64,000 nucleotides of DNA from Candidatus Omnitrophota bacterium (GCA_903944345.1 CAJARJ010000015.1:70433-134432); one strand, 5' to 3'. Counted from the first letter of the stretch, positions 21,449 to 63,487 are shown. Notes: generated from the sequence alone by a model not told the origin. Program-made: numbers and translations.

Positions 21449-21496
21449 ATTTTAGGGAGGAGACAAGAACAAATCAATTGTACTGCGGTACTACAG
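21449..21496 (-). promoter_or_regulatory. Conserved promoter family, copy a (TTGATT -35, 17 nt, TAAAAT -10) with upstream conserved block
   Basis: Minus-strand sequence ctgtagtaccgcagtacaaTTGATTtgttcttgtctcctcccTAAAAT. About 85 nt upstream of the CsbD ATG. Confidence 0.5.
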
Positions 21497-21524
21497 AGGA
21501 TGAAATTCATGTCCGTCAATCGCG

Positions 21525-22262
21525 TCAGTGCCCTTCGTCCAGCCCTTCTTGCCGAACATCCTTCCTGTTCTCATGTTCCCGCCCCGCATAAACTGTCCTG
21601 GGAGGAACAATGGTCCCCTTGGGAACAATCGCCCCTGCCGCGATTATCGCCCGGTCGCCGATCTGGCATCCGGGCATAATCGTGCAGTGTGATCCAAGCA
21701 GAACATTGCTTCCGATTTTCACTTTCCTTAGTTTCAGCGATCCCCTCTCGACAATGTGCCCGTTAATGATCGCTCCGCCACCAACAACCGTGTTGTCGCC
21801 GATCTCCAAAAGAGTCGCATCAAAAACAAATTTGGAATTAAAGTGCACATTCCTCCCCAACTTCGCACCCAGAAGTCGAAACAGAATATTGGCAAAAGGC
21901 GTAAGCAGAATAAAATCAATAAATGTATAATGCACCATCAAAAAAAGTGAACTCATAAAAGCCCACTTCATTGCCTGTATTGAAGAAAGCGGGTAAGTTC
22001 CCTCCTGTAACCTTAACCCCAGAATGCTCCGGAAAACACCAACCAGCAAGATCAACGTTACCCCGAACATAAAAAATCCCGCAGATATTGTGGCCCCCAA
22101 AAGAAACAGGCGCAAAACGGGTGCCGTGAACATCGTTATCTGCCAGACTTTTAGAAAGAGAGCTATGCCAGGAACCAGGGCCGCGCCAAAAAAGATCGCC
22201 CCCATTACATACATAAAAATCGCAAATAACAGCTGAATGGAAACTGTCAGCAACCAATTCAT
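21525..22262 (-). CDS. Membrane-anchored hexapeptide-repeat (LbH) acyl/acetyltransferase
   Basis: N-terminal TM helices followed by left-handed beta-helix repeats (IGDNTVVGGGAIINGHIV, IGSNVLLGSHCTIMPGCQIGDRAII). Start at the ATG at 22262 with an AGGAGA RBS. Confidence 0.6.
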   Translation of the reverse strand: MNWLLTVSIQLLFAIFMYVMGAIFFGAALVPGIALFLKVWQITMFTAPVLRLFLLGATISAGFFMFGVTLILLVGVFRSILGLRLQEGTYPLSSIQAMKWAFMSSLFLMVHYTFIDFILLTPFANILFRLLGAKLGRNVHFNSKFVFDATLLEIGDNTVVGGGAIINGHIVERGSLKLRKVKIGSNVLLGSHCTIMPGCQIGDRAIIAAGAIVPKGTIVPPRTVYAGREHENRKDVRQEGLDEGH

Positions 22263-22273
22263 AAAGTTCTCTC

Positions 22274-23005
22274 CTATAACGTATTGTGAAACCATTCCAG
22301 ACACGGTTTCATAAATTGATCCGGCTGTTGATCAAACATCGTTTCTGCATGTCCGCACTTCTCAAGGATAACTATTTTCTTGGGCTCTTTTGCCTTATTG
22401 TACAATTCCCGACTATGCCTGACATTGATCAACCAGTCTTCCGCTCCGTGCAAGAACAAGACCGGCCGGGGAGATATCCGCTCAACAATTTCAATCGGTG
22501 CGATCTTCGGCTCCCACGGATGCCCCGGACGAACCCCCTTGCCCCGGGCTTTATACCCAAGATTCAGCTTGAGATCATCAAGCATGGCAGGTTTCCAGAA
22601 TTGATAGTCAATCTTCCAGAAATCATACGGAGCACTGACCGCTATCAGGCTCTTAACATCCTGATTCTCGGCAGTTTCCAATAAACTAATTGCCGCACCT
22701 AAAGAGAACCCCATCAAACCAATCGATTCATACCCGCAGGTTTTTACATAAGCGATTACAGCCCGAAGATCGGCGCATTCTTTTGCGGTCCATGTAAATA
22801 ACCCGGAGCTCTTCCCGTGCCCGCGGAAATCAAAAGCCACAACATCATAATGAGAAGCCAGTCCCTGCGCGATCAGGCGAAACAAGTAAGCGTCTTTGGC
22901 ATTAAAAAAACCATGGGCAAGAATAATAATCCTCCTGAACCCCTGCTCATGGTGAACCGCTTCTATGCGGTGATTGTCCTGTGTTCTTAAAGTCACGTTA
23001 CGCAT
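22274..23005 (-). CDS. Alpha/beta hydrolase
   Basis: Oxyanion hole HGFF and nucleophile elbow GFSLG. 243 aa. Confidence 0.75.
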   Translation of the reverse strand: MRNVTLRTQDNHRIEAVHHEQGFRRIIILAHGFFNAKDAYLFRLIAQGLASHYDVVAFDFRGHGKSSGLFTWTAKECADLRAVIAYVKTCGYESIGLMGFSLGAAISLLETAENQDVKSLIAVSAPYDFWKIDYQFWKPAMLDDLKLNLGYKARGKGVRPGHPWEPKIAPIEIVERISPRPVLFLHGAEDWLINVRHSRELYNKAKEPKKIVILEKCGHAETMFDQQPDQFMKPCLEWFHNTL

Positions 23006-23116
23006 CCAACTCTCCCCTTGCCCGCTACAGACTCTTTAAAGCATAACACGAGATAGTTGATACATCAACCAGTGCGCGAACGCGGCATTTAGCCCGCCTT
23101 AACTTTTTAAACCCCT

Positions 23117-24542: not shown

Positions 24543-24692
24543 TCATGGCCGTCTGCGTCCACTAATGAACTGCAAAATGATAACGATAGCGGCAATGACA
24601 AGCAGAACATGTATAAACCCTCCCATGGTGTACGAGGAAACCAGACCTAACAACCAAAGCACACACAATACAACTGCAATTGTATACAGCAT
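24543..24692 (-). CDS. lmo0937-family small membrane protein (49 aa)
   Basis: Not in the ORF track because it is under 60 aa. MLYTIAVVLCVLWLLGLVSSYTMGGFIHVLLVIAAIVIILQFISGRRRP. AAGGTGG RBS. Paralog at 58241-58384. Confidence 0.6.
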   Translation of the reverse strand: MLYTIAVVLCVLWLLGLVSSYTMGGFIHVLLVIAAIVIILQFISGRRRP

Positions 24693-24713: not shown

Positions 24714-24953
24714 CTAACGGACAGCTCGCTCTACGGCTGCCCCGACATCATGTCCTGCCGCCCGAATGTCATCTCCTACCGAACGCCTGAAAAGCGGCCG
24801 ACCACCCGCAATAGCCCAGATAAGAAAAATGACCAGCAGAACTGAAAGAATCCCGGAAGGCGCGTATCCCCAGGATCTGCTGTGAGGCCACATTGGCCAA
24901 ACTCCAATAGCCAGAACAAGTACAACGAATAGCAAGATTGTTTCAGTAGACAT
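24714..24953 (-). CDS. DUF3309-family small membrane protein
   Basis: MSTETILLFVVLVLAIGVWPMWPHSRSWGYAPSGILSVLLVIFLI matches the DUF3309 signature (WPxWPYSRxWGYxPSG). AAGGAG RBS. Confidence 0.6.
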   Translation of the reverse strand: MSTETILLFVVLVLAIGVWPMWPHSRSWGYAPSGILSVLLVIFLIWAIAGGRPLFRRSVGDDIRAAGHDVGAAVERAVR

Positions 24954-24973: not shown

Positions 24974-25147
24974 TTAATGGTTGTTCTTTAGCCGTTGCTC
25001 GGCTTCCAACCAGTTATCCAGAGCGCATCCGCCCTTCTCCCGATAGATTTCATAAGCCTGGTCACGGATTGAACTGTCCTCTCCGGCCTTAGTCTGAATG
25101 ATTTGCGGTTCACTTGCCTGCTGATGACGATGATGTTGTCTTGACAT
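24974..25147 (-). CDS. DUF2934-family small protein (57 aa)
   Basis: Not in the ORF track. MSRQHHRHQQASEPQIIQTKAGEDSSIRDQAYEIYREKGGCALDNWLEAEQRLKNNH matches the DUF2934 core (IRxxAYxIWexxGxPxGxxxxxWxxAE). AGGAGA RBS. Confidence 0.55.
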   Translation of the reverse strand: MSRQHHRHQQASEPQIIQTKAGEDSSIRDQAYEIYREKGGCALDNWLEAEQRLKNNH

Positions 25148-25395
25148 ATCTATCTCCTGTTTTTATCGCTGTTTCCTTACGAAAGACCCAAACCTTTATT
25201 ACCCATATCCTCAATATTGATCAACAAATTCTGTACTCCTGAACCCATGTTTTGGGGACTGCCTAACCTTATCCCCATATTCCAGAGTATCCGGCCAAGA
25301 CTCTTTATCTGAACTTCTGTTTCTTGTCTGTTTCCTCTGCGATATTTGTTTCATTTGTGTCCCCTTTGTTACCGAATTGCTCTGTGCTTCTATTT

Positions 25396-25443
25396 CATTC
25401 TAGAACAGAGCAAAAACGAATCAATTGTACTGCGGTATCATGA
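25396..25443 (-). promoter_or_regulatory. Conserved promoter family, copy b (TTGATT, 16 nt, TAGAAT)
   Basis: Minus-strand sequence ctcatgataccgcagtacaaTTGATTcgtttttgctctgttcTAGAAT. Upstream of the DUF2934-DUF3309-lmo0937 small-protein operon, leaving a long 5' UTR. Confidence 0.5.
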
Positions 25444-25999: not shown

Positions 26000-26010
26000 A
26001 GATCACCTCT

Positions 26011-26868
26011 TTATAAACAGCGTAGTTTAGCCTTCTTCTGAAAAACTCTTGTCACATTACCATTCGCATTTTTCCAATCCGGGCAGGAAGAAAAGATGGA
26101 AGAGAGAAATTTTTTAACCCGCACGGCTATCCGATCGCTGATCTGCCGACAGCGCTTCAGTTTCTGCGCCTCACTGCCCTTAAGGTCCGCCGGATCTTCA
26201 AACTCCCAGTGTATGCGCTTCGCCTTGCCCGGGAATACCGGACAACGCGCCCCTTCCGATTCCGCGCAAACGGTTATCACGTAATCAAACGACTGCCCCT
26301 GGCTGATCAAATCGTGCACGCTCTTGCTGCGGCAACCCGTAAGACTTATCCCCTTCTCTTTAAGAATCGCGATAACCATCGGATTAAGCGCTCCAGGCTC
26401 CAGACCAGCACTCGCCACCACGACTTGCGCCCCGCCCAACTTCCTTGTATACGCCTCCGCCATCTGGCTGCGGGCGGCGTTATGCACACAAACGAACAAA
26501 ATGCGAACCGCGTTACCGCCAACACTGCGTGAATCTGTTCTAGCGGAAAGGCTCCGCAATTTATCTATATCCCTGCGGGCAATCTTGTTTTCCAGAAAAC
26601 ACGATTCCAGACACCCCAGAATGCTCCGCACCAGGACATCATTGGAACGATTTATCCCGTAAAAGGACTGTGTCCCTTCTTCCCGAATAACAAGCAACCT
26701 GTTATTCTTAAGATACGCCAGATGACGCGATATGGTTGACTGTGGCAAACCCGTAACACCTACCAGATCCTGAACCCGCCTTTCGCCATGAGTAAGCAGA
26801 ATCATGATCCGCAGCCGTACCTCTTCGCTCATGGCTTTAAAAATAGCCGCTTCTTCTTTCACGCACAC
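26011..26868 (-). CDS. ArsR-family HTH regulator fused to an LMW-PTPase-type arsenate reductase domain
   Basis: N-terminal ArsR/SmtB HTH ([45 protein letters not shown]). C-terminal [12 protein letters not shown] ... [17 protein letters not shown]. Starts with GTG at 26868. Confidence 0.75.
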
Positions 26869-26989
26869 ATCCTTTCATCCGCATAAACGGATATTATACA
26901 AACCAGGGATTCCCGTCAATATTTTTTTTAAGCCACCGGAGATCTCGGGCAGGGACGGAATTGTCGCAAGACGATACGCGAAAGCTTTG

Positions 26990-27676
26990 TCACAACAAGT
27001 TGAACCGGTATCCTATCCCCGGCTCATTAACGATACGTTTGGGCCTGGAAGGATCATCCTCAATCTTTTGGCGCAAATGATTCAAATAAACGCGTACTGA
27101 ATTCAGCTTCTGCTCATTATCAGTTGCCCAAACATCTCTCAAGATCTGCCGCATCGTAAGAACCCTTCCGGCATTCTTGATGAACAATATCAACAGTCCA
27201 TATTCAATAGCCGTCAACTTAAGCGGCTGTCCATTAAGAGCGGCGATGCGCGTGTTGAACTCCAGGCGCAAGCCGGCATTGTCAAAAACCTCATCAACAA
27301 TTCCCGGAGTTGTTTTACGTCTCAAAACAGCCTGGAGCCGCGCGATCAGCTCGACCGCTGAAAAAGGCTTGGTCACGTAATCATCAGCGCCATTCTCAAG
27401 GCATCTTACCTTGACTTCTTCCTGACCTCGAACTGAAACCATGATCACGGCCACATCGCTTATCTCCCTAATCCTCAGAAGCACATCTGTACCTTCCATA
27501 TCCGGCAGCCCCATGTCCAACAGCACGGCATTAGGCTTCTTGTAAACCAGCGCAGCCAAGCCTTCCTTCCCGGAGCCCGCTTCAATCATGCCATATCCGG
27601 CATGAGTCAGAATCACCCGCAACAATTTTTGAATCTGCGGTTCGTCATCAATAACCAAAACTAGTCCCTTGGACAT
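26990..27676 (-). CDS. kdpE: Two-component response regulator KdpE (OmpR family)
   Basis: Receiver (LVLVIDDEPQIQKLL ... LLDMGLPDMEG) plus a winged-helix output domain. Directly downstream of kdpD. Confidence 0.85.
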   Translation of the reverse strand: MSKGLVLVIDDEPQIQKLLRVILTHAGYGMIEAGSGKEGLAALVYKKPNAVLLDMGLPDMEGTDVLLRIREISDVAVIMVSVRGQEEVKVRCLENGADDYVTKPFSAVELIARLQAVLRRKTTPGIVDEVFDNAGLRLEFNTRIAALNGQPLKLTAIEYGLLILFIKNAGRVLTMRQILRDVWATDNEQKLNSVRVYLNHLRQKIEDDPSRPKRIVNEPGIGYRFNLL

Positions 27677-27677
27677 C

Positions 27678-30332
27678 TCACGCTCCGCCTTCCTTCTCAA
27701 CAACCGGCAAGACCATGCTCACCATAAAACCTTGCGGCAACAGGTTAATCGCTCCGACAGTCCCATTATTCATTTCCACAAAACGCCTGGCAATAGAAAG
27801 CCCTAACCCAAGCCCGCCTTTTCTGGTCTGGGCCCCCCGGTAAAACTTATCAAAAATTCTGCTCAAAGTTTCCTGGGGAATACCTCCACCCTGATCAACG
27901 ACATTAATCAGAATCTTCTGGTTCAAAACAGAGGCCTTAACATCAACAACTCCTCGCACCGGGCCATGAATCAGTGCGTTGCTGACTATATTCTTGAGTG
28001 CCTGTGTCAACATATAGAAATCTGCCTGAACATACAGCGGAACATCCGGATACTCGATCCTGACCCGGTCTTTGCTGACCCCGACAGCAGCCTGTTTTAC
28101 TGCCTCATTAACAATATCACCAACCTCACACCAGGCGTAGCTCGGACGAAAATTTCCGGTATCAAGTTTCGTCAGGTCCAGAACGGCATCAACACTGTTC
28201 GTTAAGCGCATGCTTGCCAGGCGGCTTTCTTCCAGGAGATCCATAGCATCCTTTGGCCATTCATGATACAAAAGAAGCGCATCCAGATATCCGGCGATAA
28301 TCGTAAGAGGCGTCTTTAATTCGTGCGAAAGATTGTCCAGCAAGGCACTCTGAAGATTTTGCGTATCTTCTTTCATCCTGGCTTCATGCGAGATTCTGAG
28401 CAAGCTGTCTTTCTCTAGCATAAGCGTCATGAGCGCAGTGAAGGACTCCAGAAGTGTGCGTTGCGCCAGATCCAGCCGACTCTCTTGCGAAAGCTCGATG
28501 AGCAATACCGCCCGGACATTCCCTGATGACATTAACGGCAAATACATAAGGGCCTGCTGCGGCAACGTGTCGCTAAACCGCCCGGCGGCCTTCTTGTTGC
28601 CAATCGTCCAATGCACAAGTCCTTTCTGTTCTTCGGTCAGCTCGATCTGGTCCCCCAAAAGTTGATCAAAAACTGGTTCCGCTGCCCCATTGAACATTAC
28701 AACCGCACTCCTCGACTTGCATAAAGCATTGATCTGCTCTGTCCCGAGCCGCATAGCCTGATTCAAATCAGTACTTACGGCCAAAGCCCGGGTCAAGGCA
28801 TACAAGGCTTCGGTGCGAATCCGCTGCCTTTTCTCAATTTCTTTCTGGCGCCGCAGCCTGGATGTCACCAGCCCCATCATCAATGCCGTTGTAAAGAATG
28901 TGACCAGCATAGCGATGTCATAATCTTTATTAATAATAAATGTATATTTGGGAGGGATAAATAAATAATTCCACGCAAGGGCACTTAAAGCGGCCAGAGT
29001 CAAAGCGGCAGACCTTCCCAAAAAAACTCCGCTCAACACCACCGCCAGCAAATAAATTAACCCCAGCGTATGATAACCCGTGAATTGCTCGAAAAAGAGA
29101 GCCGTGATCGTAGCCAGGGTAACCGTCAAAAGACTCAAGCCATATTCATACGGCCTGAATCGAGAATCAAAGTCACGAAGTTTCCCGGATGATACCTTTT
29201 CAGTTGATGACAACCGCACAACGTGTATATCAATCTCGCCGCTCATTTCGACCAGCTTGTCGGTCAAGGAGGCCCCTTCGAACAGGCGATGCCAGGATTT
29301 CTGCGAGGATTTCCCTACAATAATCTGTGTTACGTTCTCTTTATTGGCCACATCGAGAATCTCGCGAGCAAGATCATCGCTCTCTTTACTCATCACTTCC
29401 GCGCCCAGAAGCCTGGCCAATGCGAGATTCTTGAGGACACGATCTTTATCTTCCTCACTGCCGGACGCCGAGTTCTCCACATGAAGGGCAATCCATGACG
29501 CATCCAGCATCCCTGCCCAGCGCCGGGTTATCCGAATAAGAGATTCCGAGAAAGGCGTTGCCCCGACAGCAACCAGAATGCGCTCCCCGCTCTGATGTGG
29601 ACCAACAATTCCTTTGGAAGCCATCAACGAACGCAAATGACGATTCACATGTGCAGCGGTCAGACGCAAAGCCATCTCCCGAAGAGCCGTCAAGTTCTCG
29701 GTCTTAAAGAATCTGTCCGCCGCCGTTGAACGCACCTGATCCGGCAAATAAACTTTCCCTTCAGCCAAACGCTTGCGTAATGCCTGCGGCGAAAGATCTA
29801 CCAGCGTGATCTCGAAAGCCTCATCCAAAATAGTGTCCGGAACGGTCTCCCCGACAGCAATTCCTGTTACAGCACGAATGTCTTCTTTGTGGCTTTCTAC
29901 ATGCTGGACATTAAGCGTTGCAAAAACATCGATGCCGGCAGAAAGCAATTCAAGGACGTCCTGATACCGTTTGGGGTGGCGACTGCCGGGGATATTGGTA
30001 TGAGCCAATTCGTCAACGAGAACCAGCTGCGGTCGAAGCCGTAAAATGCCGTCGGTATCCATTTCCGTAAAGATCTTGTCGCGATAATTAATAACTTTAG
30101 GTGAGACCTTGTTAAGACCCTGAACCAGCGCCTCGGTCTCCGCACGGCCATGAGTATAAACGACCCCGACAAGTACCCGCACACCTTCCGCCTGCCGCGC
30201 TTGAGCCTCCTGAAGCATGGCGTATGTCTTGCCAACGCCGGGGCACATACCAAAGAAAATTCGCAGCTTCCCCCGCTTGTTATCCTCAGCGTTAACATTT
30301 AATAACAGCGCGTCCGGATCTGGTCTTTCCAT
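27678..30332 (-). CDS. kdpD: Sensor histidine kinase KdpD
   Basis: 884 aa. N-terminal KdpD domain with Walker A (GMCPGVGKTY), a USP-like domain, four TM helices, a GAF-like region, HisKA (SHELKTPLT) and HATPase_c. Confidence 0.9.
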   Translation of the reverse strand: MERPDPDALLLNVNAEDNKRGKLRIFFGMCPGVGKTYAMLQEAQARQAEGVRVLVGVVYTHGRAETEALVQGLNKVSPKVINYRDKIFTEMDTDGILRLRPQLVLVDELAHTNIPGSRHPKRYQDVLELLSAGIDVFATLNVQHVESHKEDIRAVTGIAVGETVPDTILDEAFEITLVDLSPQALRKRLAEGKVYLPDQVRSTAADRFFKTENLTALREMALRLTAAHVNRHLRSLMASKGIVGPHQSGERILVAVGATPFSESLIRITRRWAGMLDASWIALHVENSASGSEEDKDRVLKNLALARLLGAEVMSKESDDLAREILDVANKENVTQIIVGKSSQKSWHRLFEGASLTDKLVEMSGEIDIHVVRLSSTEKVSSGKLRDFDSRFRPYEYGLSLLTVTLATITALFFEQFTGYHTLGLIYLLAVVLSGVFLGRSAALTLAALSALAWNYLFIPPKYTFIINKDYDIAMLVTFFTTALMMGLVTSRLRRQKEIEKRQRIRTEALYALTRALAVSTDLNQAMRLGTEQINALCKSRSAVVMFNGAAEPVFDQLLGDQIELTEEQKGLVHWTIGNKKAAGRFSDTLPQQALMYLPLMSSGNVRAVLLIELSQESRLDLAQRTLLESFTALMTLMLEKDSLLRISHEARMKEDTQNLQSALLDNLSHELKTPLTIIAGYLDALLLYHEWPKDAMDLLEESRLASMRLTNSVDAVLDLTKLDTGNFRPSYAWCEVGDIVNEAVKQAAVGVSKDRVRIEYPDVPLYVQADFYMLTQALKNIVSNALIHGPVRGVVDVKASVLNQKILINVVDQGGGIPQETLSRIFDKFYRGAQTRKGGLGLGLSIARRFVEMNNGTVGAINLLPQGFMVSMVLPVVEKEGGA

Positions 30333-30371
30333 GGCTTACATCTTACTTGCTATTGGTTTATAGACCAATTA

Positions 30372-30947
30372 TTAATTCAAACTGTCCAACGCCAGATTTA
30401 CTTTAAGGATATTGATCACCGGCTCCCCTGCTAATCCCAGGAATCGTCCAGATATATTTTGTTGTACAATTTGCCTCACCTTTGCTTCCGGCAGTTTCCT
30501 CAATCTGGCAACACGGGACAACTGATAATATGCCCCGGCTAAGCTCAAATGAGGATCCAGTCCACTTGCAGACGCACTGACCAAGTCAATCGGAATGGCT
30601 GCCTGGTTTTCGGGATCGACTATTTTCAAAGCCGCGATCCTTGCCCTAACAGCAGCGACCAAAGCCGGATTTGATGGCCCCAGATTTGAACCCGATGACG
30701 CTAAGGCATTATACGCCGGACTTGTTGCCGAAGGCCTGCCCCAGAAATATCTGGGATCATCGAAGTTCTGCCCGACAAGAGAGGACCCCACCACACTGCC
30801 GTCTTCCGCATAAAGCAGGCTTCCGTTGGCCTGCTTATAAAAAAATATCTGCGCAACGCCGGTAACGAACAAAGGATAAATGACTCCGGTGATCACGGTT
30901 AACACTATAAAAACCATAAAAGCCGGCCTGATCTGTTCTCGCCACAT
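30372..30947 (-). CDS. kdpC: Potassium-transporting ATPase subunit C
   Basis: 191 aa, single N-terminal TM helix, KdpC family. Lies between kdpB and kdpD. Confidence 0.9.
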   Translation of the reverse strand: MWREQIRPAFMVFIVLTVITGVIYPLFVTGVAQIFFYKQANGSLLYAEDGSVVGSSLVGQNFDDPRYFWGRPSATSPAYNALASSGSNLGPSNPALVAAVRARIAALKIVDPENQAAIPIDLVSASASGLDPHLSLAGAYYQLSRVARLRKLPEAKVRQIVQQNISGRFLGLAGEPVINILKVNLALDSLN

Positions 30948-30959
30948 AAATCCCCCTAT

Positions 30960-35613: not shown

Positions 35614-35624
35614 GCGCCCTCCTG

Positions 35625-52265: not shown

Positions 52266-52381
52266 ACCTTTTCCTTTCATTACCCGTCATTGTATTCTCG
52301 CAAAAATGCTGCCAGTCTGCGGCCAAGCACCTGGGCAGCGGGTTGATGCGTTAACCCCGGCAGCACAAATACAATAGACAG

Positions 52382-53245
52382 TCAATGTCTCATCTTGTCG
52401 ACAATACGGTTAACAGCTTCAAGATTCGGCTTTCTCTGGAAAAGGGGCGCTTTGTCCTGCTGGTAAGCGGCCAGTTGATCTTCAAACACAGGCTTCCCTG
52501 TCTGCTGGTAAAAGATCCCCAATGGAAACCTCCCGGTTTCGATCGCCCGTTCAAAGGCCTGCATTCGGTTATGCGTGTCATGAGAATCATCAAGAAAATA
52601 TGTCCGGTCACGAAACCACTGGTATGTATTGATCTTGTTAAATGTTACACACGGCTGAAAGACGTCAACCAGGGCGTAACCTTTATGAAGAATGGCTTTC
52701 TTTACTATTTCCCTGAAATGATCCTTGAATCCCATAAAAACCCTGGCCACAAAAGACGCATCTAATGCAATAGCCACAGCGAGCGGGTTGAACGGTTCGA
52801 GAATCACGCCATTTACCTGGACCGGCGTCTTGAAGTCTCTGGCGCTTGTCGGCGAAGCCTGCCCCTTGGTAAGCCCATAGACCATATTGTTATGAACAAT
52901 ATTTGTAATATCCGGATTCCGGCGGATTGTATGAATAAAGTGATTCCCCCCTTCGCCATACATATCACCCTCCCCGCTGGTAACGACAACCGTCAGGGAT
53001 GGATTTGAAGCCTTGATTGCCGTAGCCGATGGCAGGGCGCGTCCATGCAGCCCGTTGAAATAATGAGCCCGCACATATTGGGGAAGCTTTGCGGCCTGTC
53101 CAATGCCGGAAACAAGAACAAATCTCTGCGGATCCGCTACAACCTCCGCCAGAATGTCCTTAAGCAGGTTCAGAATCCCGAAATTTCCACATCCCGCACA
53201 CCACGAAATTTCAGCTTGAGGAAAATCAAAGGCTTTACCTGACAT
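52382..53245 (-). CDS. 2-oxoacid:ferredoxin oxidoreductase beta subunit (TPP-binding)
   Basis: [10 protein letters not shown] and [20 protein letters not shown] are the TPP-binding motifs of KorB/PorB. Start at the ATG at 53245 with an AGGAGTGAGG RBS. Confidence 0.8.
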
Positions 53246-53252
53246 ACACACC

Positions 53253-54971
53253 TCACTCCTGTTCCCAGATCTGTCGGACAAGTTCCTCTACAGAAAAAGG
53301 AGCACCGTTGTATTTAAGGATTTTTTTGTGAACCGACAGCCCTGTTTCTCGTCTTAGAAGACCAGAAAACTGCCCGCCTGCATTATTTTCAATACAGATC
53401 ACTTCTTTTGCTTTCTTAATAAAGGGAATTGCCGTTTCAGGGAAAGGATAAACCTGCCTGAAATAAAGAAAAGCCATGTCCGGGTCTTTCTGCAGCTCCA
53501 GCGCCTCCAATATCGCATGGAACGTGGACCCCCAGGCAATAATCAACTTCTTATAATCTTTTGCACCATATAGTACAGGTGCCAAAACCTTTTCAAGGAG
53601 TAATTCATGCTTCTTCATCCGCTTGTCAACCATAGCCCTGCGAACAGCGCCATCCTCGGTTATATGGCCACTTTCATCGTGTTCGTCGCTGTCGACGCAG
53701 ACTATTCCCTGGCCGAAGCCGGGGATCCCTCGAGGAGACAATCCGCTTTGCGTAAACCGGTATCGTTTGTAATCCGGCTCTGTCTGAACCGGCTCGTTGG
53801 AGATGCTGGTGCTGACAACCGGAAGCTCGGCAAGAGTTTGATATAGATCAAGCAAGCCCTGGTCAGTCAAAATAAAAACGGGAACCTGATATCGATCTGC
53901 GAGACCAAAAGCCCAGGCAGTCAAAACAAAAACGTCCTCGATGGTACCAGGCGTAAGAATAGCCCTGGGAAACTCTCCATGCCCGGCATAAAGCGCCAGA
54001 TCCAGATCCCCCTGTTCCGTCCGTGTAGGAAGACCCGTCGCCGGACCTGGCCGTTGAGCCAAATGAATAACCATGGGAGACTCAATTGCCCCTGCGAGGC
54101 TAAGACCCTCTGACATCAGGGCAAACCCACCGCCAGATGTAGTCACCAGGGCCCGCCCACCGGCATACCAGCTGCCAAGCCCCATGTTGATAGCCGCAAT
54201 CTCGTCCTCAGCCTGCTCTACCACAATACCGAACTCATCTGCGTGCTGAGCCAGAAAAGTCAGAACACCGGTTGAAGGAGACATGGGATAAGATGCGAGA
54301 AAATTACATCCACCGACCACAGCGCCCAGCGCGGCGGCTTCATGCCCGCTTATAATAAGCTGCTTTTTAATATCAGCATTACGCTCAATCTGAATGGTTA
54401 GTTGATACCGGTCAACCGCTTGCAGACCGAAATTAAACCCGCGCTGCACGGCCAGACAATTCTTTTCAATAATATCCGCTTCTTTTTTAGCAAAAGAACT
54501 TCTGACCTGTACAATCACTTCTTCTGCAGAAATACCAAACAGAGCAGCAAGAAAACCGAGTGCCACCGTGTTGGAAAGTATCCGGTTGCCCAGTTCCCAT
54601 GCAATCTTTGAAAAGGGGACGGAAAAAATATCCCGTCCCTCTTCTTTATGGCTCTCTTCATTAACAATAATAATGGTCTTTGGAGAAAGCCGGTCTTTCA
54701 CATGATCAATGGCTCCAGGATCAAGCGCTACCAGCACATCTATCCTGTCAAGAAAAGCAACGACCGCTCGAGATGAAACACGAATCTCGGTAGTATTGGT
54801 CCCGCCACGAACGCGAGACATGTATTCCTTAGTCGCGGAAACATGATAGCCTGCGGACTTGAAGATCCGCATGAGGATTTGCTCAACAGTTTCAATCCCC
54901 TGTCCGGCCTCCCCCGCCAGAACAACGGAAACATCATGGTGAAAGATTCGCTTAACAGGCATAATGCTCAT
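53253..54971 (-). CDS. 2-oxoacid:ferredoxin oxidoreductase alpha subunit (gamma-alpha fusion type)
   Basis: 572 aa. N-terminal gamma-like domain ([18 protein letters not shown]), then alpha domains. Directly upstream of the beta subunit. Confidence 0.8.
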
Positions 54972-55008: not shown

Positions 55009-55293
55009 TTAAACCTTACGAATTATTGTAGGGGGGAACCGGAACGAGTCAATTGCACTACGGTATAACAGACAGGGGACGAAAAACCGAAGGAAAGGAA
55101 TTTGAACCAACCTACCAACATCAATAACAATAGTGACTTGGCGAAGGCCTCTTGCCAATGCCAATGCCGTCAAAATCCCTGCCTGTCGTGAATGAATCAA
55201 GCTGTTGCGAAAAACAACAAGCATGTTGGGTCCCGAAACAATAATGACAAACCATCCGACAACAATAACGGTCAACCAATCGCTTAACCACAT
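55009..55293 (-). pseudogene. Truncated LysE/RhtB-family exporter (N-terminal ~50 aa recognisable)
   Basis: ATG at 55293 with an AAGGAG RBS. MWLSDWLTVIVVGWFVIIVSGPNMLVVFRNSLIHSRQAGILTALALARG matches the LysE N-terminus. The rest is non-hydrophobic and stops after 94 aa. Its 3' end is overlapped by promoter copy f. Confidence 0.35.
55024..55076 (-). promoter_or_regulatory. Conserved promoter family, copy f (TTGACT, 17 nt, TACAAT)
   Basis: Minus-strand sequence tgtctgttataccgtagtgcaaTTGACTcgttccggttcccccccTACAAT. About 45 nt upstream of the korA ATG. Overlaps the 3' end of the truncated LysE-like ORF. Confidence 0.5.
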
Positions 55294-57582: not shown

Positions 57583-58164
57583 TCACTTTATTTTAACAAG
57601 AATTTCTGCAAGTCTACGACCCAGTGCTTCAATAGCAGCTTGCTGTTTGACATCCTTAAGTGCCCCATTTGCATTAAAAGCCTCGTCAGCCTTGGAAACC
57701 GCCATCTGCTCGGAAAGAACAAGGACCTGAATATTGGAAAGAATGGAGCGGACTTGTACCAATCCCCTCAGCCCTCCAAGAACTCCTGGGGAAGCGCTCA
57801 TGATCACCGCCACTTTTCCGGCAAAACAGGCTAACGGCGTCTCCTCGGGTAACGGTCGGGAGGCCCAATCAATTGCGTTCTTCAGAACCCCGCTTATTCC
57901 ACTGTTGTACTCAGGCGCAGAAATTAAAAGCCCATCGTGTTCCACCAGCAATGCCCTGAATTTCTTAACATTCTCAGAAAGACCCTGCTGAACTTCCAGG
58001 TCTCCATCATAAAGCGACATCGGCAGATCACGGAGGTCAAGGTAAGTTACTGTTGCCCCGGCGGCATGTGCTCCAGACGCCGCTATCTTAACAAGCTTCT
58101 TATTAAGGGAGTCGATGCGCGTACTCCCGGAAAATGCTAAAATTTTTGGTTTAGTTGTTTGCAT
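57583..58164 (-). CDS. NADPH-dependent FMN reductase (flavodoxin-like fold)
   Basis: KILAFSGSTRIDSLNKKL ... APEYNSGISGVLKNAIDWAS. Start at the ATG at 58164 with an AAGGAGGG RBS. Confidence 0.8.
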   Translation of the reverse strand: MQTTKPKILAFSGSTRIDSLNKKLVKIAASGAHAAGATVTYLDLRDLPMSLYDGDLEVQQGLSENVKKFRALLVEHDGLLISAPEYNSGISGVLKNAIDWASRPLPEETPLACFAGKVAVIMSASPGVLGGLRGLVQVRSILSNIQVLVLSEQMAVSKADEAFNANGALKDVKQQAAIEALGRRLAEILVKIK

Positions 58165-58240: not shown

Positions 58241-58384
58241 TTATTTCCGTTCGTTAATGACCTGCAGAAGAATAACGATAACGGCAATCGCAAGCAAGAT
58301 GTGAATAAGTCCTCCCATTGTGTAAGACGAAACCAGTCCTATCAGCCAAAGCACAACTAAAATAACGGCAATTGTGTACAACAT
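58241..58384 (-). CDS. lmo0937-family small membrane protein (47 aa), paralog of 24543-24692
   Basis: MLYTIAVILVVLWLIGLVSSYTMGGLIHILLAIAVIVILLQVINERK. AAGGAGA RBS. About 80% identical to the other copy. Confidence 0.6.
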   Translation of the reverse strand: MLYTIAVILVVLWLIGLVSSYTMGGLIHILLAIAVIVILLQVINERK

Positions 58385-58706
58385 ATATGTTCTCCTTCCA
58401 TTGGGCAGTGACTTCCTGGAATTCGGCACAATGATACGCCACATAAAAAAAGAAACAATTAGACCCGGGTATAACAAAATAGAAACTGTGGAAGAATGAG
58501 GAATTCTAGGAAGAAACAATGCTCGCTTTCTGGGCGAAGTGGACAAGCTCGGTGACAGTCTTGGCCTGCATCTTGTGCATGACCCGGCCACGGTGGACCT
58601 TGATCGTCTGAAGGGCGGTCAACTGCGTCCAGAAGCAAGCATGCAGGAAGTCTGGAGTGCTTGAAAGAAAGAAATTCTTCTGCGCAATAAAATAAATGAG
58701 ATATCA

Positions 58707-59081
58707 TTAAGATTGAATCGGCTCAATGAGACGTATTTTTTCAAATAATAACTCAATGTCAAAAGGTTTATTTATAATGCCCGCGACCAGTCTTGACATG
58801 TTCTTATCCGCATCTAACATATCTATATCCAACATGCCGGAAATGATAAACACGGCGCACCGGGGGTGCTTGTTTTTTGCCATTTTCAACAGATCAATCC
58901 CATTCAATCCCTTCATTTTATAATCAAAAAGACAGACATCATACCCATTTTTCTCTATCAGGAGAGCACCTTCCCTGCTGTCCGTTGTATTATCAACAAG
59001 ATACCCTTCCTCACGAAGAAGCATGGCTAATGAATGGCCAACGTTCTTATCATCATCTACTATCAGGATTTCTTTTGGCAT
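58707..59081 (-). CDS. Response-regulator receiver domain; a LuxR/FixJ-type HTH remnant follows in-frame after tandem stop codons (probable pseudogenised FixJ-family regulator)
   Basis: Receiver motifs ILIVDDDKNV ... CLFDYKMKGLNG. In the same frame, after TAA-TGA at 58704-58709, codons 58506-58700 encode ...LTALQTIKVHRGRVMHKMQAKTVTELVHFAQKAS, which matches the third helix and C-terminus of FixJ/LuxR HTH domains. The first half of the HTH is not recognisable. Confidence 0.7.
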   Translation of the reverse strand: MPKEILIVDDDKNVGHSLAMLLREEGYLVDNTTDSREGALLIEKNGYDVCLFDYKMKGLNGIDLLKMAKNKHPRCAVFIISGMLDIDMLDADKNMSRLVAGIINKPFDIELLFEKIRLIEPIQS

Positions 59082-61932
59082 CTACCGCCCCCCCCGCGCG
59101 TATAGGTAAAATTATTTTGACCATTGTCCCCTTTCCCTTATCGCTTTCAACGGTTATCGATCCGGCATGTAACATGACTAATCGATGACATACCGCAAGT
59201 CCAAGGCCCGTGCCTGTTGTTTTTGTAGTAAAAAACGGGGCAAAAACCTTCTCCAGGTTTTCCTTGTCAATCCCTTCCCCATTATCTTTTATCATTATAG
59301 CAACACCGGAATCATTAACCCGGGACTCGATATTTATTATACCGCCATCCTTATTCAACGCGTCAAAAGCGTTATTCAAGACATTACTGAACACTTCTTT
59401 CATTTGAAGATAATCCGCTTCTATGAAAATCCCTTCCGATGGATCTGTTTTCACATTAACAGCTGTGGCTTGACCCGGAAACCTTCCCGTCACCTCATCA
59501 ATACATTCTTGAAGAACACCGTTAATTTTGACAGGCTGGAATCGGACCGTCTTAATCTTCGAATACGATAAAACATTGTTTATGATCTGATCAGCCTCTG
59601 AAATTCTCTTGTCGATAGTACTTAAATCCTCCTGGATCCGCGGATCCTTGATCATTTTCTTGATATGGTAGGCTGACAATCCTACGGCTGCTAATGGGTT
59701 GCGCAGCTCGTGAGCGACGGTCGATGCTAATACTCCAATATCCGCGAGACGTTTTGCGCGTTCCAATTCTATTTGCGTCACAGCAAGGTCATGCGCTTGT
59801 TCTTTGACCAAGATTTTTAATGTCTCTTCATCTCGCTTCAAAATTTCTTCGGCTTCTTTTCGAATTGTAATGTCTGTGGACGTACCCACCAAACGGGTAA
59901 ACTTTGCATCCCCGTCAAAAGACGCTTCCCCGCTCTCCTCCAGTACTGCCAGCGCACCATCGCCGCGCACTATTCGATATTCAACCAAATAATTATTCAT
60001 GCCTGGTTTAAGGGCTTTCAGCGTATTAACAAACCGCTCGCGATCATCAGGATGAACGCGTAGAAAATACTTCCGACCGGTATCAGTTTGTGCCTCTTCT
60101 GCTGACAGCCCCAGAACAGGTCCACAGCTTTCCGAGCGAACAACCCTATCGCTGACCGGATCCCATTCAAACGCGAAGGAATGGCTAACCCGCAGGGCTA
60201 TCTGCATCCTTTTCTCGCTCTCTGCCAGCACTTCTTCGGCATGCTTGCGGGCAGTAATATCCGTTGAGATTCCACCGACGGCGTATATCTTTCCCGCCAC
60301 GTCGCGCAGGGGAAACTTCGTCGTCAGCCACGTAATTGAGCAGCCCGGAAACTTGCTCTGCTCCTCGAAGTCCAGCGTCCGTCCCGCCTCAATCACCTTG
60401 CGATCGTTGGCCTCATGCCAGTCAGCGTCAGCCTGCGGCATGAAGTCGCTGCGGCGCTTGCCGATCATCTGGTCCGGCGTGGAGTTAAGTAGTTGGGCGA
60501 TGGCGGCATTAGCCAACACAAACCTTCCTTCCAGATCGAAGGCATAGACAATGGCCGTCGCGTTATCAATGATATTCTGGATCTGCCGGTGCGCCGCGGC
60601 CAGCGATTCCTCGTCCTTCGCATGCTTCGCGCGTAATCTTATGATTGATATTCCATAAGCAATGTCATTGGCCAATTCAGAAAGCAATTGCACTTCTTTT
60701 TCCAGAAAAGGATCCGGTTCTTTTGAATATATAGTTATTGCGCCGAGAGTGGAATTGCTCTCAATTAAGGGAAGAGCTATTGAAGAGGCATAACCTCTTT
60801 TTATTGCTTCCTCGCGCCAAGGTTCCATTTTGGGATCCGTCAGCATGTTTCTGCAAACACAAAATTCTCCGGTGCGAATGGCCATCCCTGTCGGCCCACG
60901 GCCGTGCTCCGTATCCGCCCAGTTAATGTTCACTATTTTCAGATACCCTTCGCCAAACCCCGCCTGTGCGACCGGCCGCACTGTTTTAACTTCATCGTTT
61001 TCGGAAAATCCGACCCAAACCATAACGTAACCGAAATTCTCGACAATTATTTTACAAACTTCGTTCAGATAATCCGCCTCATTGCTGGCGCGCAGCATGA
61101 CCTTATCCAAATCGCTAAGCGCCTTAAGCGCCCTGTTGAGCTTTCTAAGCTCTACTTCGTTCTGGCGGAGGGCATTCTCATTACGTTTGCGATCGGTGAT
61201 GTCCTGCGAAATACCGAAGCCGCCAAGCAGCACGCCTGCGGCGTCGAACTCGAGATACGCCTTCTCGCGCACCCATCTCACCTCCCCGTCTACGATGAGG
61301 CGATGCTCGATGTCGTAGGGCTCGCCACGCATGCCTGCCTGCCACTGGGCGTCCACGTATTGGCGATCATCGGGATGGATGCATCCCAGAAAGGTCTCAT
61401 AGGTCAGCGGCGTCCCCATGGGCAGACCGAAAATGCGGTAATTTTCGTCGGACCACGTCAAGATATTGTGCTGCATGTTAAGTCGCCACGAGCCGATCTG
61501 CGCAACGGTCTGGGCACGGGCGAAGTCCTCGCGGCTCTCGCGCAGCTGCTCCCGAATGCCCCTGCTTTTGGTGATATCGATACAAATGCCGCTCATGCGC
61601 ACGGCGTCGCCCTTTTCATCGTAAACTGTACTGCCCTTGGAATTTATCCAGCGGACCTCACCTGTAGGCAAAACGACCCTGTACTCGCTGTCAAGAGGGG
61701 CCCGATCTTTAATGGCTTCTTCGATCATGGACTGTGCAAACTGAATATCTTCCGGGTGCAACACGCTGTTCCACAAGTCAAAGCTGGCTTGAGTCTTCGC
61801 TGGATCAAGACCAAATAGAAAAAATAATTCCGACGACCAATGGATCTTGCCGCTTCTGATATCCCAATCCCAGACACCGGCACCGGCTGCTGTTTGCGCG
61901 AACCTTAACCGCTCTTCGTTCTTCCGCAGCAA
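59053..61932 (-). CDS. Multi-PAS/GAF sensor histidine kinase (C-terminal portion of a probably disrupted larger gene)
   Basis: At least four PAS/PAC modules, a GAF domain, HisKA (VAHELRNPLAAV) and HATPase_c (GTGLGLAVCHRLV). The ORF begins with TTG and has no RBS. Its reading frame continues upstream as ...LDITERKHSEEL, the end of a PAC motif. Confidence 0.75.
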   Translation of the reverse strand: MLRKNEERLRFAQTAAGAGVWDWDIRSGKIHWSSELFFLFGLDPAKTQASFDLWNSVLHPEDIQFAQSMIEEAIKDRAPLDSEYRVVLPTGEVRWINSKGSTVYDEKGDAVRMSGICIDITKSRGIREQLRESREDFARAQTVAQIGSWRLNMQHNILTWSDENYRIFGLPMGTPLTYETFLGCIHPDDRQYVDAQWQAGMRGEPYDIEHRLIVDGEVRWVREKAYLEFDAAGVLLGGFGISQDITDRKRNENALRQNEVELRKLNRALKALSDLDKVMLRASNEADYLNEVCKIIVENFGYVMVWVGFSENDEVKTVRPVAQAGFGEGYLKIVNINWADTEHGRGPTGMAIRTGEFCVCRNMLTDPKMEPWREEAIKRGYASSIALPLIESNSTLGAITIYSKEPDPFLEKEVQLLSELANDIAYGISIIRLRAKHAKDEESLAAAHRQIQNIIDNATAIVYAFDLEGRFVLANAAIAQLLNSTPDQMIGKRRSDFMPQADADWHEANDRKVIEAGRTLDFEEQSKFPGCSITWLTTKFPLRDVAGKIYAVGGISTDITARKHAEEVLAESEKRMQIALRVSHSFAFEWDPVSDRVVRSESCGPVLGLSAEEAQTDTGRKYFLRVHPDDRERFVNTLKALKPGMNNYLVEYRIVRGDGALAVLEESGEASFDGDAKFTRLVGTSTDITIRKEAEEILKRDEETLKILVKEQAHDLAVTQIELERAKRLADIGVLASTVAHELRNPLAAVGLSAYHIKKMIKDPRIQEDLSTIDKRISEADQIINNVLSYSKIKTVRFQPVKINGVLQECIDEVTGRFPGQATAVNVKTDPSEGIFIEADYLQMKEVFSNVLNNAFDALNKDGGIINIESRVNDSGVAIMIKDNGEGIDKENLEKVFAPFFTTKTTGTGLGLAVCHRLVMLHAGSITVESDKGKGTMVKIILPIRAGGAVDAKRNPDSR

Positions 61933-63074
61933 TTCTTCGCTGTGTTTGCGTTCAGTAATGTCCAGCGTTGCGCCCGGTTATAGACCCAACGCACACTGCC
62001 GTCGGGTCGCACTATCCTGTGTTCCAGCTCATAGATCGAGCCGCTGCGCATGGCTGCGGTGAAGGTCTCGTGCAGCAGGGTCGCATCGTCCGGATGAATA
62101 TACCTGGCAACCATGTCCGCATATACCGGCGATTGCCCCGCCGGATTGAGTCCGTAAATGCGGAACTCCTCCTCCGACCAGATTGTGGTTTGGGTGGCGA
62201 CAATGTATTCAAAACTGCCGAGGTGCGCTATCTTCTGTCCCTCGGACTGCAGTTGGCTCATCCGCACCAGCGCCGCCTCAGCCTGCTTGCGCTCGGTAAT
62301 ATCGATATTAACACCGAACACACGAATAACCTTCCCTGCTTCATCATAGAGCGCGCCACCCTTTGTTGAAATCCAGCGGTACTCTCCTGAGGAATGACGG
62401 CCACGAAATTCAAAGTCAAACGACTTGTACTCCTTTATCGCCTTATCTCGTTTGACCTCAATTCTGCTAATGTCATCCGGGTGCACCTGTTCACGCCAAT
62501 CCTGGTATGTCTTAATGGTTCCAGGAGGCAGTCCGTACAGTTTATTAAGCTCCGGTGTGAACTCAAGCGCTCCGGACTCAACATTCCAGTCCCAAATTCC
62601 AATATTTGCGCTCTCCTGCGCCAGCCTCAGTCGCTCCTCGCTTTTGCGAAGGGCCAAGGCCTTGTCATAGTCGGCAGCCTTGTGCCGATGGTGGCGGTAG
62701 AGTTCAGCAAACACGCTCATGAAGAAGCCCATGCTAATAAAAAGCACCAACCCCACGCGTTCGACAGGCGATGCGATAGCTATCCCTTCAGGCGGGAGAA
62801 CCCAGTATGCCACAAAAAAGCCCGATAATACCGTTGCCCCCAAGCCCGGCCCGAAACCACCCAACAATGCCGTCGTCATCACCATCGGATAAAACGTAAT
62901 GTAGGTAGGCAATCCGGGGCCAATCCCCCCTGTCACCGCCTGCCGCAACCCAAAACCAGCCGCCACACCCACCAGCGACAGACTATACCGTAAAAGAAAC
63001 CGCAGAAGCAGCTGATTAGGCACACCTGCCAACAATAGATTCTCCCCTCGCAAAGTGCTTTTACTTTCTTCCAC
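61905..63074 (-). CDS. Membrane-anchored PAS/PAC sensor segment (N-terminal portion of the same disrupted histidine-kinase gene)
   Basis: TM helices followed by two PAS/PAC modules (NIDITERKQAEAAL). Start proposed at the GTG at 63074 with a GGAGGGA RBS. Ends out of frame inside a PAC motif (HRIVRPDGSVRWVYN...). Confidence 0.55.
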   Translation of the reverse strand: MEESKSTLRGENLLLAGVPNQLLLRFLLRYSLSLVGVAAGFGLRQAVTGGIGPGLPTYITFYPMVMTTALLGGFGPGLGATVLSGFFVAYWVLPPEGIAIASPVERVGLVLFISMGFFMSVFAELYRHHRHKAADYDKALALRKSEERLRLAQESANIGIWDWNVESGALEFTPELNKLYGLPPGTIKTYQDWREQVHPDDISRIEVKRDKAIKEYKSFDFEFRGRHSSGEYRWISTKGGALYDEAGKVIRVFGVNIDITERKQAEAALVRMSQLQSEGQKIAHLGSFEYIVATQTTIWSEEEFRIYGLNPAGQSPVYADMVARYIHPDDATLLHETFTAAMRSGSIYELEHRIVRPDGSVRWVYNRAQRWTLLNANTAKNCCGRTKSG

Positions 63075-63184
63075 TGAATCTCCCTCCACACATAAAAAAG
63101 ACGCAGACAAAACCCACTGCGCCTGAAATATACTCCCTAGCGGACTCTTTTCTTTAAACTTACCATGTCGATTCTCTCAACCTT

Positions 63185-63370
63185 TCAAAGCAGTGAACTT
63201 TTCAGCTTATCATCAATGTATTTTACAATATCTTCTTTTAGAATTCTATACCCGCCACGACGTCCTTCCCCGTATCCTCTCAGCTTTTTCAGTCGAACAA
63301 GCTGACGGATATACGCTTCCCCGACCTTTAAATATTCTGCCGCTTCTTTTGTCGTAAGAATATCATCCAC
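63185..63370 (-). CDS. Helix-turn-helix DNA-binding protein (excisionase/MerR-like HTH_17 family)
   Basis: LTTKEAAEYLKVGEAYIRQLVRLKKL is a typical excisionase-family HTH. 61 aa. Confidence 0.6.
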   Translation of the reverse strand: MDDILTTKEAAEYLKVGEAYIRQLVRLKKLRGYGEGRRGGYRILKEDIVKYIDDKLKSSLL

Positions 63371-63435
63371 AATAAACCCTATCTAACAGGCTTCAATTGC
63401 TTCTCATTGACTCTAATGTGATTTAATGTGGAGAG

Positions 63436-63487
63436 ATTCTATTAACCCGCTCAAAATTGGTCAATTATACCTGGGTATAACAGGCCG
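63436..63487 (-). promoter_or_regulatory. Conserved promoter family, copy g (TTGACC, 17 nt, TAGAAT)
   Basis: Minus-strand sequence cggcctgttatacccaggtataaTTGACCaattttgagcgggttaaTAGAAT. About 58 nt upstream of the HTH-protein ATG. Confidence 0.45.

Follow-up and report, generated by a model that had tools for sequence, protein, structure and literature searches.

Several described systems come close to the one reported here. Among regulators of the NarL/FixJ type, DosR/DevR commands the dormancy regulon of Mycobacterium tuberculosis and NarL/NarP recognize 7-2-7 sites, in both cases from class-II positions, and it is well known that a response-regulator box at such a position can define a regulon. 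General stress regulons are known under sigmaS in the Gammaproteobacteria, sigmaB in the Firmicutes and EcfG/PhyR in the Alphaproteobacteria. In Pseudomonas, phosphorylated StyR dimerises and activates the promoter PstyA from a high-affinity site, STY2, located around -40 from the start site (PMC2442086). Here we examined a 64,000-nucleotide stretch of DNA from a Candidatus Omnitrophota bacterium (GCA_903944345.1, CAJARJ010000015.1:70433-134432; hereafter the window), in which a 16-bp palindromic box lies directly against the -35 hexamer of a series of sigma70-type promoters. From comparison of these sequences we consider it probable that box and promoter form a composite element, in which the box would be the operator of a StyR/FixJ-type response regulator that activates a stress regulon. 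New here are the box itself, its phylum-wide conservation in an uncultured phylum, and the apparent placing of general-stress-type genes under a StyR/FixJ-type two-component system.

An earlier note on this DNA had described a conserved ~30-bp block occurring seven times on the minus strand, and re-reading of the sequence confirmed all seven copies at the coordinates that it gave. A position weight matrix (PWM) built from these seven sites scored them at 30-47 bits and recovered an eighth minus-strand copy (58447-58477, 25.8 bits) that was missing from the original list. No further match above 10 bits was found in the 128 kb of both strands, and the top score in 50 shuffled windows was 19.5 bits. 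The degenerate core TACCNNRGTNYAATTG occurred 7 times against 0.15 expected. A ninth copy was located ~2.4 kb past the right end of the window (L026 2654-2684, approximately window coordinate 66398-66428), where it precedes an Ldh fragment and a heavy-metal P-type ATPase, while positions 1-21,000 and the 5 kb to the left of the window contained zero copies. This corresponds to nine sites per ~47 kb. Every copy was intergenic or placed as a promoter, in the same orientation as its downstream gene. As a literal repeated string the 30-mer did not hold up: only two sites were within 3 mismatches of it, and it is therefore to be read as a consensus.

We aligned twelve sites that had not been selected by exact match (eight from the window, the ninth copy in L026 and three from L030, a locus in an Omnitrophica metagenome-assembled genome, or MAG). 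Their consensus was tgTTATACC nn RGTAyAATTGayy nn TTyT, with A, C(C), G, T and AATTG invariant or nearly so. The box is a 7-2-7 palindrome of 16 bp, TTATACC-NN-GGTAyAA, with a single dyad axis: complementarity about this axis was 74%, against 8-51% (mostly ~25%) about the other centres tested. Between 4 and 7 of the 7 arm positions were complementary in each site, and three sites were perfect, including the one before the gene for a small protein of the HTH_17 family. The most deviant was site 4, in which the left arm is altered to TTGAACT and still pairs with the right arm, AGTACAA. The palindrome was always followed by two bases and then by the invariant TTG of the -35 hexamer, and this register was identical in 12 of the 12 sites. 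A -10 hexamer of the form TAnnAT came 16 or 17 nt after the -35 in all eight window sites, the spacer range being the same across the twelve, and many sites had a C-rich stretch at -15 to -13 (cccTAgAAT). The -35 hexamers of the window sites were TTGATT (three times), TTGCTT, TTGCTC, TTGACT, TTGACC and TTGTTT. The fixed register and spacing of a sigma70-type promoter, as claimed earlier, were thus borne out, but TAGAAT occurs in three of the original seven sites and not in four. With the -10 hexamer taken as -12 to -7, the dyad centre falls at -42.5 to -43.5, which is a class-II activator position and at which binding is predicted.

The earlier note had left open whether the block was an activator site or an alternative-sigma element. 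The sharpness of the 7-2-7 dyad argues for a dimeric transcription factor rather than for the latter, and TTGAyy and TAgAAT matched none of the consensuses of ECF (extracytoplasmic function) factors, sigmaB, sigma28, sigma32, sigma54 or sigmaH that we considered. Consensuses of this kind include GGAAC/CGT, GTTTAA/GGGTAT, TAAA/GCCGATAA, CTTGAAA/CCCCAT and TGGCAC/TTGC. Nor did the block behave as an upstream (UP) element, since it contains G/C positions (A, C, C and G, T) that are invariant or nearly so. When the eight window sites were compared in pairs, identity was 68-73% in the block and 24-31% in all flanks from -120 to +180. Because the flanks are no more alike than random DNA, the block is not part of a larger dispersed repeat such as a miniature inverted-repeat transposable element (MITE) or a repetitive extragenic palindrome (REP), nor of a recent cassette, a possibility that had been named as one that would overturn the proposal. 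No Rfam covariance model matched anywhere in the window at its gathering threshold. A scan of 44-64 kb for the sigma70 consensus returned 30 promoters against 25.6 expected, so that such promoters are not enriched overall; two of the box promoters ranked first and third among the four top matches (10 of 12 positions), with the site 6 promoter at the top.

The eight promoter modules of the window, all on the minus strand and numbered after the original seven sites, and the genes behind them are as follows.

Module 1, 21449-21496 (minus): box TAGTACC-GC-AGTACAA within the block 21466-21496; -35 TTGATT 21472-21477; 17-nt spacer; -10 TAAAAT 21449-21454. Genes: CsbD 21196-21357 (Pfam); 110-aa lipoprotein-like open reading frame (ORF) 20822-21154.
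Module 2, 25397-25443 (minus): box TGATACC-GC-AGTACAA; -35 TTGATT 25419-25424; 16-nt spacer; -10 TAGAAT 25397-25402. Genes: 47-aa peptide 25211-25354; DUF2934 24974-25147; DUF3309 24714-24953; DUF5670 24543-24692.
Module 3, 46274-46320 (minus): box TTATACC-GC-AGTACAA; -35 TTGATT 46296-46301; 16-nt spacer; -10 TAAGAT 46274-46279. Gene: 2883-aa cyclic beta-1,2-glucan synthase 37514-46165.
Module 4, 48173-48220 (minus): box TTGAACT-TC-AGTACAA, both arms of the TTGTAC type and 6 of 7 positions complementary; -35 TTGCTT 48196-48201; 17-nt spacer; -10 TAGAAT 48173-48178. Genes: alpha/beta hydrolase 47097-47933; UppS-like prenyltransferase 46370-47122.
Module 5, 51658-51704 (minus): box GTATACC-CG-AGTACAA; -35 TTGCTC 51680-51685; 16-nt spacer; -10 TATAAT 51658-51663. 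Gene: Fe/Mn superoxide dismutase 50950-51579.
Module 6, 55025-55071 (minus): box TTATACC-GT-AGTGCAA; -35 TTGACT 55047-55052; 16-nt spacer; -10 TACAAT 55025-55030. Genes (2-oxoacid:ferredoxin oxidoreductase): KorA-like 53253-54971; KorB-like 52382-53245; possibly also rubrerythrin 51771-52280.
Module 7, 63436-63483 (minus): perfect palindrome TTATACC-CA-GGTATAA; -35 TTGACC 63459-63464; 17-nt spacer; -10 TAGAAT 63436-63441. Genes: HTH_17 63185-63370; DUF4118-PAS protein 61905-63074; PAS-GAF histidine kinase 59053-61764; receiver-only response regulator 58707-59081.
Module 8, 58431-58477 (minus): box TTATACC-CG-GGTCTAA; -35 TTGTTT 58453-58458; 16-nt spacer; -10 TATCAT 58431-58436. Genes: DUF5670 58241-58384; probably also a flavodoxin-like FMN reductase 57583-58164.

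The gene identities proposed earlier were confirmed by Pfam, and the view that the block marks a set of stress-type operons was supported. Two details were corrected. The first gene after site 2 had been given as DUF2934, at a distance of 249 nt, but is the 47-aa ORF, which begins ~42 nt past the -10; and the start codon of HTH_17, assumed to be ATG, is GTG instead. The 47-aa ORF (25211-25354, minus strand) encodes a hydrophilic, lysine/serine-rich peptide beginning MKQISQRKQTRNRSS and belongs to no Pfam family. Homologues of 41-52 aa with 41-51% identity were observed in the same first position in five other loci (L011, L015, L016, L018, L023). The peptide seems to be a conserved small member of the regulon that has escaped annotation. 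A further ORF call of 94 aa (55009-55293, minus strand), without a Pfam match, extends across box 6 and its -35; either the call is spurious or the gene has decayed and its 3' end lies over the promoter. Other short fragments in the same region were the 88-aa Ldh in L026 and, among the L001 gene calls, an 85-aa reductase of the old yellow enzyme (OYE) type just downstream of the superoxide dismutase gene. Together with the 94-aa ORF, the Ldh and OYE fragments suggest gene decay in the stress-gene cluster.

When orthologous intergenic regions were compared, the box was found to be kept in other genomes, which fits a regulon. A scan of 185,579 species (one genome each) with the 19-mer TACCGCAGTACAATTGAYT gave 11 matches. 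Eight were in MAGs labelled Candidatus Omnitrophota/Omnitrophica or, in one case, in a 'delta proteobacterium' MAG with the same flanks, and the other three were in one conserved Bacteroidales coding sequence. A metagenome scan added six more real sites and three more coding matches. All 14 real sites carried the 5' flank yTrTTA, which is not forced by the search pattern, and all 13 that could be tested had TAnnAT at a spacer of 16-17 nt, often with CCC before it (the remaining site, L013, ends at a contig edge). The six coding matches (L004, L007, L008, L017, L020, L021; Bacteroidales/Prolixibacteraceae) had neither the flank nor the -10 and were rejected. In this gene TACCGCAGTACAATTGAYT is a coding-sequence coincidence and must be filtered from motif scans. 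A stretch upstream of the box, CTTTCCGAATTCTGATC, was also considered as a motif; it was seen in seven loci (L006, L015, L016, L018, L019, L022, L023), was absent from the window's own sites and, because it is confined to that subset of loci, was set aside as likeness among related promoters.

Proteins of the window and those of the box loci were 74-86% identical, and on the strength of this homology, with relatives and loci named Omnitrophota, we place the source organism in that phylum. The operon encoding the small peptide, DUF2934, DUF3309 and DUF5670 was observed with the same box in at least six other loci (L005, L009, L011, L012, L016, L023), and UppS-like orthologues were observed behind the box in four (L011, L015, L018, L022). 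At the cyclic glucan synthase gene of L014, the protein is 74% identical and the surrounding DNA has diverged, while a 32-nt promoter run and the -10 are identical. The HTH_17-kinase operon of L030 has the same variant as module 7, a perfect palindrome with TTGACC. Genes driven by the box in relatives also included DUF1328-like and entericidin-like peptides, DUF2959, a Fet4-type iron permease, CheW-CheR, receiver-only regulators, Transgly_assoc-BON and an Mla transporter. Literature searches on Omnitrophota promoters and on the motif strings turned up neither a description of the box nor any promoter motif for the phylum, and a search on general stress responses involving CsbD and DUF3309 gave no paper.

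The most likely binder of the box, judging from gene order and homology, is a StyR/FixJ-type response regulator with a receiver (REC) domain and a GerE DNA-binding domain, paired with a PAS histidine kinase. The gene was met in L030, a locus reached through HTH_17, where the order is box, HTH_17, KaiC, KaiB, KaiB, PAS kinase and response regulator (REC+GerE, 208 aa), with another box ~60 bp on. Three further lineages were fetched through the regulator protein without use of the motif. The distances from the regulator gene to the next box were as follows.

L030: regulator stop codon to next box ~60 bp; the regulator operon is itself box-driven.
L034/35: regulator stop codon to next box 19 bp.
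L036-38: regulator stop codon to next box 91 bp; two more boxes nearby.
L039/40: regulator stop codon to next box 21 bp; a perfect box, TTGTACC-TT-GGTACAA, before the REC-histidine kinase-regulator operon.

All four lineages thus had a box less than 100 bp past the regulator gene, even though the genes that follow are not the same. At a density of 1-3 boxes per ~20 kb we estimate the chance of such linkage as ~1e-8; restricting boxes to the ~2.5 kb of intergenic DNA in each locus raises the estimate to ~1e-4. Two of the four lineages (L030, L039) also have the operon of the regulator itself behind a box. The three fetched lineages all showed a 4-nt overlap between the regulator gene and a gene for a histidine kinase, the kinase being of the PAS type in L034 and L036. 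A homology search with the regulator gave more than 7,700 matches; the best 120 clusters were 72-86% identical and 204-212 aa long, many of them named Omnitrophota, and the helix-turn-helix (HTH) was almost invariant (LQTIKVHRsRVMQKM). The HTH_17-PAS-kinase-REC cluster of the window is orthologous to the first half of the L039 cluster (68%, 47% and 58% identity), and a box follows each: module 8 lies directly 3' of the window operon, and the box in L039 holds the same place. Genes for Fur, TetR, DtxR, KdpE, ArsR-LMWPc and MerR also occur nearby, and none showed recurrent linkage to a box.

Inside the box-driven operon of L030, between HTH_17 and the PAS kinase and regulator, lies a KaiC-KaiB-KaiB module (7353-11256), which suggests a Kai-type timer or a stress input into the circuit.

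Comparison with StyR lends further weight to this candidate. Among solved structures the regulator comes closest to that of Pseudomonas StyR (1yio; E = 3e-46, 43% identity over 196 residues), with FixJ next, and the recognition helices are nearly identical, reading TIKVHRsRVMQKM in the candidate and TVKVHRhNIMQKL in StyR. We read PstyA in plasmid pSTY as tttTTATACCGCATAAACCATGGTTTATttcc, that is TTATACC-GC-ATAAACC-AT-GGTTTAT, in which STY2 is the 7-2-7 palindrome ATAAACC-AT-GGTTTAT. In a single comparison, suggestive as far as it goes, five of the seven positions of the STY2 half-site agree with the Omnitrophota half-site TTATACC (positions 1 and 4 differ), and the exact heptamer TTATACC lies one register upstream of STY2. 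The StyS/StyR system, to which TodS/TodT is related, thus shares with the Omnitrophota circuit the regulator subfamily, a PAS kinase partner with an overlapping gene, and a 7-2-7 inverted repeat, and its high-affinity site at ~-40 is needed for activation (PMC2442086). It differs in serving one catabolic operon in response to styrene, whereas the Omnitrophota box precedes at least nine stress-type operons in 47 kb, and in that no comparable -35 hexamer is apparent beside STY2, whereas the Omnitrophota TTG is invariant. In its architecture and position, and in the family of its candidate binder, the box matches a mode of action that is already known.

A side observation was made in the styR-styA intergenic region of Pseudomonas sp. 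VLB120 pSTY (L041 3203-3231): the 10-mer TTATACCGCA, which is also the left part of the Omnitrophota box in its commonest form, stands directly upstream of the palindrome ATAAACCATGGTTTAT in 7-2-7 register. It could be a third StyR half-site or a coincidence.

DosR/DevR and NarL/NarP resemble the Omnitrophota system in having a GerE-type regulator, a palindrome at or over the -35 and a multi-operon stress regulon that includes small stress proteins and the regulator's own operon, but they differ in phylum, in signals and in their boxes, a 20-bp palindrome for Dev and the heptamer TACYYMT for NarL; the Omnitrophota regulator is unlikely to belong to either orthologous group. In gene content, the likeness is to the sigmaS, sigmaB and EcfG regulons, with which the box genes share CsbD, DUF3309, DUF1328, entericidin, BON/OsmY-like and Transgly_assoc proteins, superoxide dismutase, an osmoprotective glucan, self-controlled regulatory genes and receiver-only regulators. 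Those regulons, however, are defined by an alternative sigma factor and its consensus, while the Omnitrophota promoters look like sigma70 promoters whose specific element is an upstream dyad, presumably for a transcription factor.

Under the composite-promoter reading, the signal, stress or redox, would be sensed by a PAS kinase, to which KaiC/KaiB would add their input in some lineages, and the kinase would phosphorylate the StyR/FixJ-family regulator (REC plus a GerE/LuxR-type HTH, ~208 aa). The phosphorylated regulator would dimerise on the box at about -43 and recruit or stabilise sigma70-type RNA polymerase at the adjacent -35. The result would be a general-stress-like regulon comprising CsbD, DUF3309, DUF5670 and DUF2934 (in relatives also DUF1328, entericidin, BON and Transgly_assoc), together with superoxide dismutase, KorAB with rubrerythrin, cyclic glucan synthase and the metal ATPase, and feedback would run through the signalling genes in the regulon (HTH_17, kinases and receiver-only regulators). 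Of this scheme, the DNA itself shows the sites with their statistics, geometry, symmetry and conservation, the linkage of the box to the regulator gene and the homology to StyR, whereas regulator binding, activation as against repression, the signal and the start sites are inferred. A wider claim, which we put forward as tentative and would hesitate to bet on, is that this is the general stress response of the Omnitrophota, phylum-wide and of a type not described elsewhere, in which a two-component system with KaiC/KaiB and HTH_17 acts on the box in place of sigmaS, sigmaB or EcfG.

Several observations weigh against the composite-promoter reading. The -35 and -10 hexamers are close to consensus, which is more typical of repressor-controlled than of activator-dependent promoters. 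The commonest variant of the box, TATACC-GC-AGTACA, is symmetric at 5 of 7 positions and its asymmetry is conserved, which a simple homodimer does not explain. A regulator orthologue was not found in the ~85 kb in and around the window, and because of this the link to the regulator in this organism is by regulon homology only. In L034 and L036 the kinase-regulator operon has no upstream box, one MAG among the regulator's best matches is labelled Elusimicrobia, and where a box recurs beside the regulator gene, the two may simply lie in one stress island, with no cognate binding between them.

The near-consensus core promoters (TTGAyy, 16-17 nt spacer, TAgAAT) also provide an opening for a repressor, since such strong promoters usually need repression. 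The box would then be the operator of a dimeric repressor, for example a winged-helix protein sensing redox, metal or stress, which on -51 to -36 would block RNA polymerase until stress releases it. Its dyad symmetry would suit any dimer, two of its promoters are among the top sigma70-scan matches, and the TACC..GGTA half-sites loosely recall the operators of CopY (TACAnnTGTA) and CsoR. The operators of one repressor, however, normally vary in position, while the register of the box was identical in all twelve unbiased sites and across species. Moreover, no suitable repressor gene recurs beside the boxes, the Fur, MerR, ArsR, TetR and DtxR genes of the region not being box-linked in other genomes, while the StyR-like activator-type regulator does recur, and we think repression unlikely. 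A different dimeric activator encoded elsewhere would leave the geometry untouched. Class II sites of CRP/FNR (5-N4-5 palindromes centred at -41.5) fit equally well in being dyads of 14-16 bp in a fixed register at the -35 with a centre near -42. They differ in their half-site, in a centre ~1-2 bp closer to the promoter than that of the box, and in that the -35 is retained in the box promoters, and no CRP/FNR gene was found near any box, in the ~85 kb in and around the window or in the related loci read. HTH_17 itself is another such candidate: it is highly conserved and is the only DNA-binding gene behind a box in both the window and L030, with a perfect palindrome there. Its model, however, resembles Xis, BldC and MerR, and it has direct repeats of its own in its leader, also where the palindrome is missing (L031, L039). 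We regard an activator of either kind as quite unlikely.

Two further explanations dispense with a dedicated transcription factor. The block could be an extended promoter element read by RNA polymerase, through the longer -35 of an alternative or stress-specific sigma factor or through a phylum-specific UP-like element that the C-terminal domain of the alpha subunit touches; in both cases it would mark a class of strong or stress-sigma promoters. The palindrome continues without a gap into the TTG, which like the AA beside it is invariant, the C-rich -15 to -13 recurs and brings to mind the -13C of sigmaS promoters, and the gene content resembles that of the sigmaS, sigmaB and EcfG regulons. 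Against these points, sigma region 4 reads ~6-7 bp, far short of 25, the dyad symmetry of the upstream part and its invariant G/C positions set it apart from the A/T-rich UP elements, and the -35 and -10 resemble no alternative-sigma consensus that we compared, which makes this explanation very unlikely. The copies could also stem from a promoter cassette that is mobile or was duplicated, or from a MITE/REP-like dispersed repeat, and share no regulator; this would explain why an identical 19-mer is common to three sites. Identity, however, drops to the flank level directly outside the 31-nt block, spacers differ, terminal repeats are missing, all copies are co-oriented in promoter position, and orthologous promoters keep the box at ~74% protein identity. 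A degenerate-box scan of 2.9 million viral contigs also gave 0 matches, and we find a cassette hardly credible. The composite promoter with a StyR/FixJ-type activator thus remains the reading that we prefer.

To our knowledge no cultured member of the Omnitrophota is open to genetics. With the box sharply defined and a candidate regulator named, the system would offer the first testable regulatory circuit for the phylum, workable in a heterologous host. The box may also serve in annotation, flagging members of the stress regulon, among them many tiny uncharacterised proteins, across hundreds of MAGs. If the system is indeed the phylum's general stress response, the same small-protein toolkit can sit under a two-component activator and not a dedicated sigma factor.

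The HTH_17 protein was 63-88% identical across 32 clusters and had no sequence relatives in the PDB. Its AlphaFold model (pLDDT, the predicted local distance difference test score, 87.5) matched Xis, BldC, the MerR DNA-binding domain and RacA; domains of the Xis, BldC and MerR type are mostly monomeric winged helices that bind direct repeats. Direct repeats of 10 bp were observed in the leader of the gene in four lineages, at the following positions.

Window 63395-63425 (minus), between the site 7 -10 and the HTH_17 start: CACATTAAAT-CACATTAGAG.
L030 ~7035-7060: TACATTAAAT-AATATTAGAG.
L031 ~9960-9985: ACACATTAAACCACATTAAAAG.
L039 ~3400-3435: ACTTATATTA twice and ACTGATGTTA.

The repeats were kept in L031 and L039, where no palindrome precedes HTH_17, and the window and L030 place them at distances from the -10 that differ by 5 nt. 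The BldC/Xis-like HTH_17 protein may itself use these repeats as its operator, which would amount to autoregulation. We judged HTH_17 unlikely to be the binder of the box because of its Xis/BldC-like monomer fold and because its repeats are kept without the palindrome, and for the same reasons it would be a member of the regulon with an operator of its own. In five lineages (window 58707-63370; L030; L031/32; L033; L039) the gene directly after HTH_17 (58-65 aa) was always one for a large PAS histidine kinase, or else KaiC with a kinase gene behind it. We know of no described function for this pairing of HTH_17 with a sensor kinase.

Elsewhere in the window, between the regions that bear boxes, positions 26,000-37,400 carry a complete kdpFABC-kdpDE set, an ArsR-LMWPc fusion and a second dCache kinase/receiver pair, with no box on any of them. 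The GC skew was negative over the whole window, and the genes were nearly all on the minus strand.

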